From contig OZ024757.1 in NCBI GenBank assembly GCA_964016885.1, positions 23,932,001 through 23,996,000 on the forward strand: DNA of 64,000 nucleotides, read 5' to 3'. Numbering within the stretch: position 1 is the stretch's first letter; each line of letters opens with the position of its first letter. The translations under genes were made by a program, and so were the position numbers. The notes under the pieces were generated by a model. That model was not told the origin of the DNA and made no database searches. It saw only the letters and a program-made list of their open reading frames with translations. Source of the stretch: Eledone cirrhosa (Eukaryota). Below, in pieces: positions 771 to 64,000 of this stretch.

Positions 771-1065
771 GATAACGAGGAATCAGTGATGCATCAAAAC
801 ACAATTTATTAACATATTACATATGTTTCTTCAACGATCAGCTCAAGGCAAGATCTGTTACAGATCGAACATGAGTCTGCATGCGCAAGTTCCTCAGATA
901 AGTTTTGCGCGAATGAAATGCTTTGAAAGCGCAAAACTTATCTGAGGAACTTGTGAATTCAGAGTCAGGTTCGATCTGTAACAGATATTGCCTTGAGCTG
1001 ATCGTCGAAGAAACATATGTAATATGCTAATAGATTGTGTTTTGATGCACTGATTCCTCGTTATC
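771..1065. mobile_element. Fold-back element with about 140-bp arms and a hammerhead-like core split by a long stem-II insertion
   Basis: CTGAGGA at 942 and GAAACATATGTA at 1010 (palindromic stem III, GUA triplet); mirror copy on the minus strand is followed by AATAAA. Confidence 0.55.
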
Positions 1066-1108
1066 TCTCTCTCTCTATATATATATATATATATATATAT
1101 ATATATAG

Positions 1109-1308
1109 GTAAGTTATTCCGGGTTGAATCGGAGGTAACCACAGTAAGTAAGGTACTCAATACATAGCAGAGTATAAAAATTTTAATATAGATGAGATTC
1201 TGCAGGACTAGAACTGTTTCATTCTTTAGAAATCATTAGGAATCTCAGGGATTCCTGATGATTTCTAAAGAATGAAACAGTTCTAGTCCTGTAGAATCTC
1301 GTCTATAT
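1109..1308. mobile_element. (TA)n-inserted fold-back element with hammerhead-like core (CTGATGA 1255, GAAA 1274); siblings at about 11075-11250 and 63590-63640
   Basis: Inverted arms 1186-1243 and 1251-1308. CTGATGA tTTC-loop-GAAt GAAACAGTT is conserved in three copies while the loop varies (TAAA, CTTC, TCAA). Confidence 0.6.
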
Positions 1309-1399
1309 ATCATCATCATCATCATCTTCGTTTAACGTCCATTTTCCACGCTAGCATGGGTTATATATATATATATGTATATATATTGTTATATTTAGG

Positions 1400-1897
1400 A
1401 GGGTTATGCTGCCAATAAAAACATATGCATCTGTTGGTTTTCACTTGAATTTATTAAAAATTTCCGGTTGATTGGTTAAAAAACCGGATGGTTGTTTATA
1501 TATTGTTAAAGCTCTTTCGTCACACATTCTGTGACCTCCTCAGTGACTGATTTGTTATTTTGTGTGTTTTGTGCTGTGTACTTGGTTTGCGCATGAGTTA
1601 TATCCGGAGTATGTGTGTTTTTATTTATGCATTTATATGCTTATTTACTTGTCACTAGTTGGCTGCTTGTTCTCTGTGTAGGTGTTTGGTTTGTTTCATT
1701 AGTTTGGTTCTTGAGTGTTTCTGTATGTCTTCATCTTGTCCTTAATTACTAGTTGTGATGTTGTTGCTATTCCACTTCTGTTTAATTTTGGTTGGAGTTC
1801 CTTTATGTTTGTCGACTAATTTGTCTGAGCATTGCATCTTTTCTGTGTGTGGATATAATTTACATCTCAATGTTCTCGAGTGTGCCACCATATTCCA
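1400..1897 (-). mobile_element. Penelope-like retroelement 3' remnant: decayed GIY-YIG C-terminus plus pLTR with hammerhead
   Basis: Minus-strand translation near 1895-1750, across stops and frameshifts, gives ..IISTHRKDAMLRQIS..KELQPKLNR..WNS, like the PLE RQI.EA..I...P.LN...W ending. A hammerhead follows at 1547-1505. (TA)n on both sides. Confidence 0.6.
1505..1547 (-). ncRNA. Minimal type-I hammerhead ribozyme motif
   Basis: gtca CTGAGGA g GTCACA gaatg TGTGAC GAAA g ag c TT taac: 6-bp stem II, intact core, one mismatch in stem I. Confidence 0.7.
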
Positions 1898-2105
1898 TAT
1901 ATATATATATATATATATACACCGATCTACTTCACCACGGGATGGATGTGCATGGCCACCGGCATATCACAATGATTGCATAACTACACCAATGATTGCG
2001 TTAGCATTTGACGAAGTCACATGAATAACCATGTGACAGTAATATATATAATGCAATAAACAATTACTGTGATTTAACCTCGTCTTAACTACCATTATTT
2101 GCCCT

Positions 2106-59721: not shown

Positions 59722-59760
59722 ACCTTTGAGAAGCCCTTTTCGGGCGAAACGTACGTAGGT
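59722..59760 (+). ncRNA. Hammerhead variant (TTGAGAA-type core)
   Basis: ACC tTTGAGAa GCCC ttttc GGGC GAAA CGTACG TA GGT; palindromic stem III; non-canonical 5' core. Confidence 0.55.
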
Positions 59761-60302
59761 GCATTTTTATATAAACATGTTTTAACGGTATTTTCTCCTT
59801 TGTAATCATTCCACTTGTAACTGCTCTGCTTATATTCTCGCCCGCTAGATATTAACGCTTCTAATATTTAACCCTGTAGGCACAAGTATTGAGCACATAT
59901 GCACAAGCTATTGACAACTAAATATATGTATCGCTTATCCCTTCTCTCTCTCGATACTTAAATATTCTATATATATTTATATGTATATATATATATATAT
60001 ATATCCTGATTAGTTCTTTCGTTGTTTTGGTAATTTATGGTTGGGTTTTGCCTCCCGCAATTTTCAATTTGTCAAGCTATTTAAACCTATGTTATTACTC
60101 TAAGGACATACTTTTATTGAGTGATTTGCTACTCATTCCTTATTGTAGGTCGACTTTGCTTGGCCACAGCCAAAGCTTCGATTTTACTAAGCTTCCACTT
60201 GTATACGACTGAGGTAGAAGCTGCTAAATAGTTGGTCGTCCTCTTGTCTCTGATTTTCAGCCCCATGAATTTTATCTGTTATATTCCTTTGTTATATTTC
60301 GA

Positions 60303-60366
60303 ATACCTGATGATGTCACCGGATTCATACTGAACCCGGTCATTGAAATGATCATAGTATAATAAA
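60303..60366 (+). ncRNA. Hammerhead motif
   Basis: ATAC CTGATGA tgtc ACCGG a TTCA tac TGAA c CCGGT catt GAAA TGATCA TA GTAT AATAAA. Confidence 0.82.
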
Positions 60367-62055
60367 CCTTTGAAGGATTTACACCAGTCCAGCCTCCTGT
60401 TATTTTATAATAATTAACTCCGTACTCGCACCACCAACTACACAAACGAAGACGGGTGATTTGCATTACGTTGAGTGCTCTCCATAATATTACATCGAGG
60501 TTGACCATACGGAATGACCAGTTCTATCCAGTGGTGAACCAACAAACCTCTCTCTCTCTCTCTCTCTCTCTCTCTCTCTCTCTATATATATATATATATA
60601 TATACGGCATGCTAGAAGCACACTACCACAAACAACTTCAAGCTTTCTGAAGACGTGTGGTAAATAATCATGTATTGCTTATTGCATATTGTATATTGTA
60701 GTCATCATATGTAGACTATTCTAATGTCTCTCCTTTTGGCACGAGGCCAGCAGTTACCCCGGTACATTACTGGTACTTTATTTTGTCGACCCCCGTAAGG
60801 ATGAAAGGCAAAGTTAACCTCGGCGTGATTTAAACTCAGAACGTAAAGGGCCATAACTCTATGCTGCAAAGCATGGTGTCTGACGCTTTACCGATACTGC
60901 CAAACCATCGCCCTTGTAGACTCTTATAAGAAATACAGAAACATATGTTAAAGTAATAAATTCTTTCTCTCTTTTCTCGTCGAAGTCAATATGTTTCTTG
61001 GTTCCATACTTGCTTACACACACACACACACACACACATGCATTTACATACCTACCTACATACATACACACACACATGCATTTACATACCTACCTACATA
61101 CACACACACACACATGCATTTACATACCTACCTACATACATACACACACACACATATATATATATATATAACGAAGGAATTGTGGTAAAGAACCAGATGG
61201 ACCATAACGCACCAGAGTACTCAATACTTAGGGTAGTAGTAGGGGCATATATATATACCCCTAACTGACTGGCACCCAATAGTAAGAAGAGACGCTGTAC
61301 GGTTACTTAGTTCAAAACACCCTTATCTTTAAATATTCTTTTCAATTGGGGAACTCTCTAATAGCAAAAACCTTAAAACCGAGTCATAGTTGTAGCACAC
61401 ATATGAAACAAAAAGAAAAGAATGTATTAACAAGCAAACCCAGTAAATAAATGCTAGCTGCACCTGTAGAAATACAAATGCATGTCCACATAATCAGTTG
61501 TGCAACGCTGAGTACGACGCATAAACACCATGTTGGTATGGCTGAAGAGAAATGTAAACAACGATACTTCAACCATATTTTTCCTTCTCTATCTCTCACG
61601 CACATACACAGACCCCCGCCCCTATATATATTAATATATATATATATATATATATATATATATTCCGATATATATATATATATATATATATATATATATA
61701 TATATATATATATATATATATATATTCCGATGAAATGACAGTTGATAATAACATTGAAATATTGAATGTCTGCATAACTAATGCTTTGTAGATAGCAGCT
61801 GTTTTCAGGTTATGTAACTGTTATAGAAACACGTGTCAATAAATTCCTTTTAACTAAACTGTATCCATTCAAATCTTTCTATATATATATGTAGAAGTTA
61901 TATTTAATTTGTTGGAATTCCGACAAGTATAAATGTTTATAACTGATATAGGGCACTCAACAGTAACTGGAGTAAATATTCGAATATCCAGCGAATTTCT
62001 GACCGTTAAGGTTGTTTTCCATGGGTATGTCGTTATTTATAAAACAAATTTTGTA

Positions 62056-62115
62056 TTTTATCTGATGAAAGCGCTCCAAGATGGCTTGGTCGCCCTTGAA
62101 ATATATATAATAAAA
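62056..62115 (+). ncRNA. Hammerhead motif, TTTTAT/ATAAAA family
   Basis: TTTTAT CTGATGA AAG.GC.CCAAG atgg CTTGG..GC.CTT GAAA TATATA TA ATAAAA. Confidence 0.75.
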
Positions 62116-64000
62116 TAAATATGGTTTTATAAATATAGTTTCTATTTATTAATATTAATATCTTGGTATATATATATACCGTTCCTCTCCGACTAAAAAC
62201 TTTCCCCCTCGGAAAAACCCTCAGTTGATGGAGGCAAAATCCGAAATATAGGGACAATTAAATCTCTTCCAAAGTAACTCTATCTCGTGTTATTATTTTT
62301 ACGCTCTTTCCTACGTTACTCTACACACTATACGTCTCATTCTACACTTCCTCTTACATCTCTCTCTTCACCACCGGATTCTGTTACTCGGAGATTTACC
62401 CATTTGCATTGTTGAGGCTTCCAAAACGATCAAATTTTTTATTATTCCACAATGCTTCAAGCAAACTTCAATACTCTCTCTCATATATATATATATATAT
62501 ATATATATATATATATATATATATATATATATATATATATATATATATATATATATAAAATATAATATATATAAAATATAATATAAGGACGCTTTGTTTA
62601 GCCTTCATTACATTTATTGATTGGTGACGCGCGTTTCACTATTGATCAGCTCAAGGATCGATCTGACTCGATTCTGGAATCAAACATCGAGTGTTCACCT
62701 GGGTAAACCTACCGTAACTTCACGTTACATTACCTGGATATATATATATATATATATATATATATATATATATATATATATATATAAATTTATTAAAATA
62801 ACAGATTAAAGTTTAAGCAAAGAATCGGTGCTTTCACATTATATATATATATATATATATATATATATATATATATATATATATATATATATATATATAG
62901 ATATATACTTAATCATTCTACCCTATTGTTTATCCCACTGTGACCGAATTATTGCTCAAATTGATGCGTCGCTAATGTATACATGCATACAAATACATAT
63001 TTGCACAAACACATACACACATATATATGTATATATATATAGATACATGCATATAAATATATATCATATATATATATATATATATATATATATATAAATA
63101 TATATATATAAATATATATATATATATATATATATATATATATATATATATATATTTAAAAAGTTAAACAAGGTTCAATGAATACATCAAAGAATGAGTT
63201 TTACAATAGATTGGAAGCTCTCAACAGAAAAAAAGAGGTTTTCCAGAGTTCTCCTACATGGATATAAAGTAGTGGCCGTACTCGAAAACGAGTTGGCAGC
63301 CACCATTATATATATATATATATATATATATATATATATATATATATATATATATATATATGTATATATATATATATGCATGCGTGTGTGTGTGTTAATT
63401 CGTAAATATATTAGTCGCTTAGACGGCAGTGTCATGCCGTCCGTGACCTTTCCAATTATGATATCCAATTGTTACCATGACTACTATCTTCACCACCACT
63501 ACCACCCTCACCAACATCACCACCACTACTACTAACACAATCACCACTTTATATATATCTATATATATGTGTATATAGTTTTTATATAGATAAGATTCTA
63601 CAGGACCAGAACTGTTTCATTCTTGAGAAATCATCAGGAATATGTATATATATATATATATATATATATATATATATATATATATATATATATATGTATA
63701 AATATATACATTATATATGAATATATATGTATAAATATATACATTATATTTATTGCCTTTCATCCTTACGGGGTCGATAAAATAAAGTACCAGTAATGCA
63801 CTGGGTAATTGCTGGCCTTGTGCCTAAAGTAGAAACAATTATATTTATATGTATGTCGATACGTATATATGTATATATATATGTATGTATGTATGTATAT
63901 ATATATATGTATGTATGTATGTATGTATGTATGTATGTATGTATGTATGTATGTATGTATGTATGTATGTATATGTATGTATGTATGTATGTATGTGTAT

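Follow-up and report, generated by a model that had tools for sequence, protein, structure and literature searches.

Hammerhead motifs of Penelope-like elements in a 64-kb locus of Eledone cirrhosa

The stretch of the Eledone cirrhosa genome analysed here (64 kb, hereafter the window) carries many short islands with hammerhead ribozyme motifs beside (TA)n tracts, and the question was which elements left these islands and how they were inserted. The motifs were best explained (probability about 80%) as hammerhead folds that numerous Penelope-like families, together with two or more non-coding tandem units, carry close to their 3′ ends, and these ends were probably inserted into (TA)n by the reverse transcriptase-endonuclease of the elements themselves, acting on uncut RNA.

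Number and form of the motifs

A strict descriptor of the type-I hammerhead (stem I ≥3 bp, CUGANGA, helix II ≥3 bp, GAAA, UH) gave 16 matches in the window. Dinucleotide shuffles, 200 global and 200 in 200-nt blocks, gave means of 0.13 and 0.21, respectively, with a maximum of 2. A broad descriptor, which adds U3-A8 and A4 cores and a helix II of up to 95 nt, gave 24 motifs, of which that at 37409 was probably a chance match and that at 47725 was a copy with a mutated core. The result was in agreement with a sequence-only reading of this DNA, which had claimed more than 20 minimal type-I hammerheads and proposed the shuffle control. Among its 21 "clear cases", 12 passed the strict scan (2967, 6590, 6698, 7098, 27005, 27436, 33532, 35021, 48368, 54896, 56337 and 62056), and 10560, 34330, 34532 and 60303 were complete by eye with a mismatch at the helix II base or in stem I. 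The other five were defective: 1505 (stem I mismatch), 11751 (stem I shifted), 14101 and 14149 (both broken off in stem I at the inversion junction) and 56023 (no C3 and no 5′ stem I strand). In a covariance-model search of the kind it had proposed, the Rfam hammerhead models, which are built on larger canonical forms, gave no match in the window at the gathering score.

The genome was estimated to hold about 218,000 strict and 307,000 broad motifs, an average of about one per 10–14 kb. The unusual density and diversity claimed for the locus were confirmed, but the figure of 1 per 3 kb was local: the window lies about 3.5-fold above the genome average, and the two 10-kb stretches flanking it held no strict match. 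Manual sorting gave about 20 window families instead of the "about ten" supposed before. A (TA)6+ tract lay within 200 nt downstream of 17 of the 24 window motifs (background 32%) and of 51/76 motifs in random loci (background 17%), which upheld the suggested (TA)n targeting. The features are listed in Table 1. Motifs within the host gene sit in its introns, equally in sense and antisense (6 and 5, a small count), and further exons of this gene are possibly present at 44–46 kb.

Table 1. Features of the window (strand in brackets)
Feature	Position	Motifs and details	Parent or relatives
Inverted pair	771..1066	Hammerheads 815-900 (-), 939-1024 (+); 60-nt helix II	No parent found
Inverted pair	1108..1310	Hammerhead 1248-1300 (+), hairpin-type helix III	No parent found; relatives 11079-11125 (-), 63595-63641 (-)
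Neptune-type element 3′ end	1385..1895 (-)	Last endonuclease codons, UTR, hammerhead ~1505-1547 with stem I mismatch	
Superfamily A hammerhead	2965..3030 (-)		Hydra-type parent in L035
Host gene, intermediate-filament protein with lamin-tail-like domain	5430..27909 (-)	Pfam Filament E 1.4e-12; LTD E 0.05	
Inverted pair, one long and one short end	6460..6805	Hammerheads 6588-6658 (-), 6696-6766 (+)	Hydra-type parent L111-L113
Minimal hammerhead	7098..7131 (+)	4-nt palindrome	
Hammerhead	10560..10620 (+)	One stem I mismatch	Defective relative 11751-11810 (-)
Inverted pair cut at stem I	14066..14227	Motifs 14103, 14149, both defective	
Possible hammerhead, uncertain	14612..14654 (-)	Weak helix III	
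Half-hammerheads cut inside helix II, U3-A8 Hydra-type family	23136..23323	Further halves 35388-35582, 41081-41239, 56506-56624, 61171-61239	Full motif and parent in L047
Inverted pair	26784..27110	Hammerhead 27003-27073 (+)	
Retrozyme-type non-coding unit	27153..27656 (-)	432 nt, 72-nt direct repeat; hammerhead 27435-27471	
Superfamily A long-end copy	33398..33660 (-)	Hammerhead 33533-33592	
Inverted pair, young U4A-core Hydra family	33846..34078	Motifs 33867-33917 (-), 33917-33967 (+)	Fragments 248-328, 62786-62839
Superfamily A inverted pair	34300..34730	Hammerheads 34328-34389 (-), 34530-34591 (+)	
Second retrozyme-type copy	34760..35219 (-)	133-nt inverted piece; hammerhead 35018-35060	
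Inverted pair	47472..47972	Cores mutated in both	Hydra-type parent in L011
Superfamily A hammerhead	48362..48424 (-)	12-bp stem I	
Hammerhead	52272..52382 (+)	80-nt helix II	Hydra-type parent in L083
5′-truncated long-helix-II motif	53330..53412 (-)	No first core box	Similar piece ~62625-62690 (-)
Hammerhead	54281..54399 (+)	90-nt helix II region	Single copy seen
Compact hammerhead	54896..54933 (+)		
Truncated motif	56020..56052 (-)	C3 and stem I 5′ strand lost to TA tract	
Superfamily A inverted pair	56110..56441	Hammerhead 56335-56398 (+)	
U4A-core family, short-end copy	59159..59333 (+)	Motif 59263-59313	
U3-A8 core motif	59691..59770 (+)	Motif 59724-59759, weak stem I	
3′ end of young non-coding 2,077-nt tandem unit	60206..60549 (+)	Hammerhead ~60303-60358	
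Long-helix-II motif	61723..61841 (+)	C at position 4; abuts TA tract	
Inverted long tail and short-end copy	61890..62166	Hammerhead 62054-62117 (+)	

Stem III, described before as nearly always a short palindrome, was a perfect palindrome in 15/24 motifs (17/24 if G-U is allowed), and three families had a longer hairpin in its place. AATAAA, said usually to follow the motif, was found within 40 nt in 15/24, but it is part of the stem I 3′ strand in the commonest families and therefore gives no evidence of a poly(A) signal. Furthermore, the stem II sequences are not all unrelated between families, as had been stated, since several named families form a superfamily A with homologous stems (2967/33532/34330/56337/62056, 6590/27005 and 48368). 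In this superfamily, aligned by sequence-only anchors, 97.7% of 576 cells were paired, and 7 of 18 pairs showed two-sided change (5/6 in helix II and 2/4 in the palindrome). None of 500 shuffles reached the covariation score; 101 of the 500 reached the count of covarying pairs alone, in a control that ignores relatedness. The covariation looked for was thus present in superfamily A but nearly lacking in the long-helix-II families, where within-family alignments gave compensatory change in 0/36 and 2/30 pairs and the hammerhead fold was not recovered by RNAalifold. The monomer hammerhead fold lay 3–11 kcal/mol above the minimum in 23/23 motifs, and for 18 of 23 the dimer fold lay below two free monomers or at most about 2 kcal/mol above them. 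The earlier view of a palindromic helix III fit for dimers was upheld.

Coding parents and non-coding units

Protein-coding Penelope-like elements were identified as parents of eight motif (sub)families, seven of them Hydra-type and one Neptune-type, which confirmed the Penelope-like origin proposed before and supplied the reverse transcriptase and GIY-YIG parents that were sought. In their genomic copies the same motif lies 0.6–1.9 kb downstream of the reverse-transcriptase/GIY-YIG frame. In the locus L052 a 713-aa frame stands between two copies of the motif, one 187 nt upstream as a pseudo-LTR and one 917 nt downstream; 18 of 87 scored matches had this 713-codon frame free of stops. Other links of motif and frame were found in L047, L035, L011, L083, L111-L113, L114 and L117. 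The L052 frame possesses YRDDG at 350, Y..C..YIG at 589–604, a CxCx5C linker (C568, C570, C576) and the CxxC (C666-C669) and CxH (C694-H696) that in the Hydra clade flank conserved E and N (N685 here); no CCHH was seen by eye in the Hydra-type frame. It has RWR and NKT, and L013, L067 and L069 have DKT. In a 70-row alignment, RW[KR] was present in 63 rows, DK[TS] in 69 and CxCx5C in 59. Pfam gave no match for L052 and GIY-YIG in only 3/70 relatives, and the atlas neighbours of the Hydra-type protein carried both GIY-YIG and RVT_1. For the Neptune-type family at 1505, the endonuclease C-terminus was found in broken frames in the window, and a putative CX2-5CxxC linker ahead of the GIY-YIG domain was read by eye in L177.

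By these sequence marks, the traced Hydra-type frames probably belong to the Hydra clade. A single frame of about 700 aa, RWK-like and DKT motifs and the CxCx5C linker are shared with this clade, including Hydra-1_Obim from Octopus bimaculoides, the likeness being judged by eye (PMC8557442). Moreover, the elements showed the other traits of the clade, namely the hammerhead near the 3′ end, (TA)n insertion, pseudo-LTR, an inverted 5′-truncated copy and a one-sided tail. The UTRs of 0.6–1.9 kb differ from that clade (PMC8557442), as does the L052 unit of about 3.24 kb, which exceeds the tendency (not a rule) to stay below 3 kb because of its 1.1-kb UTR. The tails were 65–140 nt compared with the 30–40 nt described for the clade, and the U4A and U3-A8 cores and helix II forms of 60–90 nt were also different from its elements.

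Only two window families proved to consist of non-coding tandem units (retrozymes), with one hammerhead per unit. The family at 27436 and 35021 has units of 424–432 nt, with tandem 424-nt relatives in L033, and the family at 60303 has a 2,077-nt unit without a frame above 126 codons; additional tandem units were found in L033 and L039. The shorter family fits the animal non-LTR retrozymes, non-coding tandem units with one type-I hammerhead each that were proposed as parasites of Penelope-like elements (Cervera and de la Pena 2020, PMC7229834; Li et al. 2026, 10.64898/2026.07.22.740005), while the 2,077-nt unit exceeds their reported lengths of 51–972 nt. The gene-less units here are likely such parasites. 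Might most islands be independent retrozyme families of this kind, moving via circular RNAs? The tandem units and the random loci, where 77 of 82 motifs had no frame within 2.2 kb (5 had one), are in favour of this, and for about ten window families no coding parent was identified. However, eight subfamilies, including the most abundant, run upstream through the UTR into a coding frame, and their 5′ ends are scattered rather than fixed, so this explanation is quite unlikely. Retrozyme-like families are probably a minority in the window; the supposed non-coding mini-elements are, apart from the two tandem-unit families, mostly heavily 5′-truncated 3′ ends of autonomous elements.

Mobilisation of the stubs by a LINE of the Dong/R4 type, or chance folding of AT-rich DNA, is very improbable and already largely refuted. 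A LINE fragment, which we take to be REL-type, does lie at about 25300–25900, and Octopus vulgaris has active Dong-R4 elements (PMC13282606). Nevertheless, chance folds are excluded by the shuffle controls, and the stubs are directly continuous with Penelope-like frames, pseudo-LTRs, tails and inverted pairs.

Ends of the copies and the route of insertion

Copies end 3′ at two fixed places, a long and a short end. The 146 pieces studied included 40 inverted pairs, and 30 of the 32 classifiable pairs joined one long and one short end. Of the 146 5′ ends, only 2 fell at most 4 nt from the cleavage site, and 127 were upstream of it. In the three best-measured families the 5′ ends piled up 20–60 nt upstream of the site, a range that held 42 of 63 ends in the closest-matched families; BLAST-defined 5′ ends can also reflect subfamily divergence instead of truncation. 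Copies therefore appear to be made from uncut RNA. The absence of a pile-up at the cleavage site would also be expected from religated circles. In addition, nine families showed a bulged hairpin 5–8 nt behind their short end, and both families whose long-end junction was readable had one behind that end too. It was present in 13 of 31 family clusters compared with 1.6 expected, the motif being defined on these same data.

For the favoured reading, insertion by the elements' own enzyme, these ends suggest a route. The element protein would nick both (TA)n strands and bind the bulged hairpins, and one cDNA would be primed at each of the two sites. Its synthesis would usually stall in the hammerhead, giving stubs of 100–300 nt. 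From the literature, the palindromic helix III may let tandem transcripts be cleaved slowly, with help from dimerisation or protein, and single intronic stubs are probably nearly inactive. Metazoan minimal hammerheads of Penelope-like elements have low activity (Cervera and de la Pena 2014, PMC4209133).

A young family with a U4A core (33867/33917/59263; mean divergence 1.4% among 19 top copies) bears on the role of cleavage. A was at core position 4 in 20,699 of 21,464 exact matches and another base in 765. The family keeps all three stems without a palindromic helix III. Lacking the invariant U4, it has a hammerhead-like fold with putative cleavage activity; in a type III hammerhead, single changes in CUGA led to low activity (PMC9901934). 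This might indicate that the hammerhead mainly serves to dimerise the RNA and to stall synthesis, bringing two templates together for a dimeric enzyme, with cleavage secondary or lost, and the long-short inverted pairs and the missing trace of cleaved templates among the 5′ ends agree with it. But the exact catalytic core, including U4, is retained in most families, and the swap of C3-G8 to U3-A8 is compensatory, pointing to selection on catalysis. Moreover, a palindromic helix III is lacking in the U4A family itself, and sequential use of one RNA could also yield the pairs. This function is unlikely as the main one.

Relation to known elements and implications

An association of octopus Hydra-clade elements with hammerheads and (TA)n was known before: the supplement of Craig et al. 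(2021) contains Hydra elements from octopus that bear hammerheads and target (TA)n (PMC8557442). Among its entries compared here there is one octopus Hydra family, unlike the many families and large copy number in the present genome. No description of the bulged hairpin was found in the passages compared, yet one is visible in the Hydra-2_Amil sequence of the supplement. Like other metazoan Penelope-like hammerheads (PMC4209133), those found here are type I, with palindromic helix III, an extra base after A9 and a U3-A8 variant, and occur as opposite-strand pairs 100–700 bp apart or mostly as single truncated copies of high diversity. The estimate of 218,000–307,000 compares, under a different descriptor, with about 2,000 (+1,300) in Schistosoma, 4,000 in coelacanth and 9,000 in Xenopus in that study; the giant-squid annotation counted 235 (PMC6962438), and the highest printed count found was 120,000 in the 28-Gb axolotl genome (PMC7229834; 10.64898/2026.07.22.740005).

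Poseidon_Ac has been studied in vitro (Frangieh et al. 2024, PMC11167929): its hammerhead is protein-assisted, and hammerhead mutants still insert. The present elements appear to resemble it in two internal initiation sites that define the tail, extension of both target strands and uncleaved RNA as template. However, Poseidon_Ac belongs to a different clade from the Hydra-type elements, and its initiation sites are inside the coding frame, whereas here both are found upstream of the start codon, and a bulged hairpin follows closely on each. In the literature searched, no prior report was found of this scale or of a 20,699-copy U4A-core family, of only 2/146 copies starting at the cleavage site, or of a bulged hairpin at the 3′ ends with 30/32 long-short pairs.

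A further interpretation is tentative. This may be one of the largest known hammerhead populations (2–3 × 10^5), whose copies would record Hydra-type integration by a dimeric enzyme on twin bulged hairpins, with one cDNA begun just ahead of each on two nicked (TA)n strands, two uncleaved RNAs joined via the hammerhead, and catalysis dispensable, as the 20,000 copies of the U4A family suggest. If true, a single mechanism would account for the tail as well as the inverted repeat seen in Penelope-like elements.

The formation of these structures and the role of the hammerhead are open questions for Penelope-like elements (PMC8557442, PMC11167929), which become testable in vitro because young intact elements, a candidate fixed-spacing cis-signal and a natural core mutant are available here. 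Since Rfam overlooks these motifs, the annotation of such genomes may miss a large share of their ribozymes. Furthermore, double-stranded RNA could arise from the intronic inverted pairs, of which there are tens of thousands.

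Hammerhead motifs and their fold

The hammerhead motifs that the sequence-only reading placed in the TA islands were confirmed against shuffled sequence. The window contained 48 CUGANGA boxes versus 18-20 in shuffles, and 16 type-I hammerheads versus 0.13-0.21 with a maximum of 2 (200 shuffles of each kind). The strict descriptor behind these 16 tolerates bulges at the base of helix II; an earlier version without bulges gave only 8-9 matches and missed real motifs. The total rose to 24 once variant cores and a long helix II were admitted. A loose U3-A8 scan gave 21 window matches, but the background was high (6.25), so only family-supported U3-A8 motifs were retained. 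At gathering score, Rfam found no hammerhead in the window, and its E-value scan gave microRNA-like noise only among the 150 matches listed (253 more).

Among the 21 positions named in the sequence-only reading, 12 passed the strict scan and four were complete by eye, whereas five were defective. Stem III, said to be nearly always palindromic, was a perfect palindrome in 15 of the 24 motifs but not in the remaining ones. The window held 140 (TA)6+ tracts, and a TA tract followed within 200 nt downstream of 17 of the 24 motifs, compared with a background of 32%. The idea that AATAAA serves as a poly(A) signal was dismissed as unsupported. Families were sorted manually, as automatic clustering chained them through a common SINE.

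Covariation was analyzed in 32 distinct motifs of superfamily A (window motifs with homologous stems), chosen by sequence and without regard to helix II pairing. Of the 576 cells, 97.7% were paired, and two-sided changes were found at five of six helix II pairs and two of four palindrome pairs. In a control that ignores relatedness, the covariation score was reached by none of 500 shuffles and the number of covarying pairs by 101 of 500. The expected stem covariation was borne out in superfamily A by the two-sided changes and the score, but not by the pair count; in the long-helix-II families it was not visible, because the sequences are too uniform. A six-sequence cross-family alignment suggests that the long helix II would form an extended irregular hairpin. 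For each of the 23 motifs evaluated, folding as a monomeric hammerhead cost 3-11 kcal/mol relative to the minimum. In 18 of the 23, the dimer fold came to no more than about 2 kcal/mol above two free monomers, or lay below them. Lunse et al. (2017) reportedly described dimer cleavage of PLE hammerhead variants.

Of the families examined, the youngest, whose 19 top copies diverge by 1.4% on average, has A instead of U4 in 20,699 of 21,464 exact matches and keeps all stems. Most of the non-A4 matches carry T. At least three among the matches listed overlap an A4 copy on the opposite strand and are inversion junctions rather than revertants. According to the available text of PMC9901934, every single change in CUGA lowered the activity of a type III hammerhead. 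The literature search found no paper on a U4A hammerhead, and Lunse et al. 2017 may already describe U4 variants.

Coding parents and non-coding units

The mini-elements had been regarded as non-coding. This holds for two window families, which form non-coding tandems with units of 424-432 nt and 2,077 nt, but others trace to RT/endonuclease frames in sampled loci. Penelope-like frames lie directly upstream of window motif families in random loci: L047 carries the frame of the U3-A8 family, half-motifs of which occur at five window places, while frames precede the A4 family motif in L019/L013 and superfamily A motifs in L035 and L011. Targeted loci (L083, L111-L113, L114 and L117) gave further frame-motif links, and the window copy at 1385-1895 itself includes the closing stretch of a Neptune-type endonuclease frame. 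About ten window families had no parent assigned among the loci compared. Locus L107 was rejected as the parent of the 815/939 family (the long-helix-II inverted pair); the hammerhead at the end of its frame is not that of the family, and a TA tract intervenes. Rfam gave no match in the 2,077-nt unit.

The Hydra-type element L052 is laid out as pseudo-LTR, frame, UTR and pseudo-LTR, and its protein shows the motifs by which the available part of PMC8557442 defines the Hydra clade. The supplement of that paper includes Hydra-1_Obim of Octopus bimaculoides, with a hammerhead and a (TA)n preference. A protein search gave 87 scored matches of 95-100% identity among 91,047 candidates, and 18 of the 87 had a stop-free 713-codon frame. 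Neither Pfam nor PDB recognised the element protein by sequence.

Traces of insertion and the bulged hairpin

The 3' ends of copies were bimodal, at about 20-57 nt and about 87-140 nt past the cleavage site. Among 146 pieces from random loci, flanks and the window, 80 belonged to 40 head-to-head pairs, and 30 of the 32 classifiable pairs joined a long and a short end. With five reference copies included, 127 of the 146 pieces had their 5' end upstream of the cleavage site, ten of the 146 more than 150 nt upstream, and two within 4 nt of the site. Of the 63 5' ends in the three families with the closest match, 42 were 20-60 nt upstream, inside the ribozyme. As the 5' ends lay mostly upstream of the cleavage site and few at it, the template RNA was therefore uncleaved or religated. 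The template of Poseidon_Ac was likewise uncleaved in vitro, as given in the accessible part of PMC11167929.

A bulged hairpin, RCTC...GAGY, was found in 13 of 31 family clusters versus 1.6 expected, and its outer pair occurs in A-T and G-C versions. It starts 5-8 nt past the short end in nine families. Where the junction at the long end could be read, in two families, a second hairpin starts 6 and 5-9 nt past that end. The 430-nt retrozyme lacks the hairpin; the 2,077-nt unit carries both.

Genomic scale and surroundings

In 79 random 10-kb stretches of the 2,996-Mb genome, 63 strict and 82 broad matches were obtained versus about 3 and 4 in shuffles. The stretches were drawn from the placed contigs by approximate contig size, and the weighted genome-wide estimates were 218,000 (147,000-299,000) strict and 307,000 (220,000-401,000) broad motifs. 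Exact whole-genome searches counted one superfamily pattern 75,326 times and one family 20,699 times, against none for the reversed controls; these figures are consistent in magnitude with the estimates. Motif density in the window was about 3.5-fold above the genome average, and its two flanks gave no strict matches. With descriptors that differ from ours, the available texts count 9,000 hammerheads in Xenopus (PMC4209133) and 235 by Rfam in giant squid (PMC6962438); PMC7229834 gives more than 6,000 for Acropora and as many as 120,000 for axolotl. In Octopus vulgaris, 31 Penelope-like families have been annotated as recently active (PMC13282606, in part).

The minus strand of the window carries exons of an intermediate-filament gene. 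Six sense and five antisense intact motifs occur over its likely span, a small sample in which no selection against sense copies is visible.

Other features in the window and in compared loci (L handles)
Location	Strand	Feature	Remarks
390-770, 2105-2450, 12570-12735, many others		SINE-like repeat, about 190 nt	Over 15 copies, often tandem
2460-2568	+	U6 snRNA copy scoring 86 bits in Rfam, altered at several positions	SINE copies on one side, TA tract on the other; probable retrocopy
9157-9202, 9803-9847	+	Matches to the histone 3'-UTR stem-loop at gathering score	In inverted and tandem repeat region; no histone gene seen; probably chance hairpins of a MITE-like element
15500-16400		Tandem array	Units about 72 nt
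20420-21440		Tandem array	Units about 44 nt
29650-31370		Tandem array	Units about 76-77 nt
23315-23420, 59400-59600		Near-perfect long inverted repeats beside TA tracts	Hammerhead not recognised; may be stubs from further Penelope-like families
25300-25900	-	Non-LTR fragment, zinc knuckle and REL-type endonuclease	TA-tract-bounded; Dong/R4-like
43502-43681	+	Degenerate piece of a Hydra-type endonuclease	tblastn E 9e-6
46620-47420	+	Decayed remnant of an RTE-like reverse transcriptase	Broken by SINE; read by eye
L042:4239-5541		Second Neptune- or Poseidon-type element	Compact hammerhead of its own, 380 nt past frame; no copy of the family seen in window
L033:8500-9800, L035:7020-7700, L039:7400-8400, L022:8400-9050		More non-coding units, about 320-470 nt	Direct repeats and inversions; one nested in UTR of Hydra-type element
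L167/L168, G000:C2:92429330-92434750		2,077-nt unit	Contains a pair of related GC-rich segments, each about 150 nt

The literature searched gave no account of a U4A family, of long forms of helix II or of paired ends linked to a hairpin. It gave none of this scale either, and the supplements of PMC4209133, PMC7229834, PMC13282606 and bioRxiv 10.64898/2026.07.22.740005 may give octopus counts. Earlier work already covers the motif class, the link to Hydra elements and the targeting of (TA)n. The hammerhead motifs of the window are real; judged from sequence, they are predicted ribozymes, and the bulged hairpin is a candidate signal.
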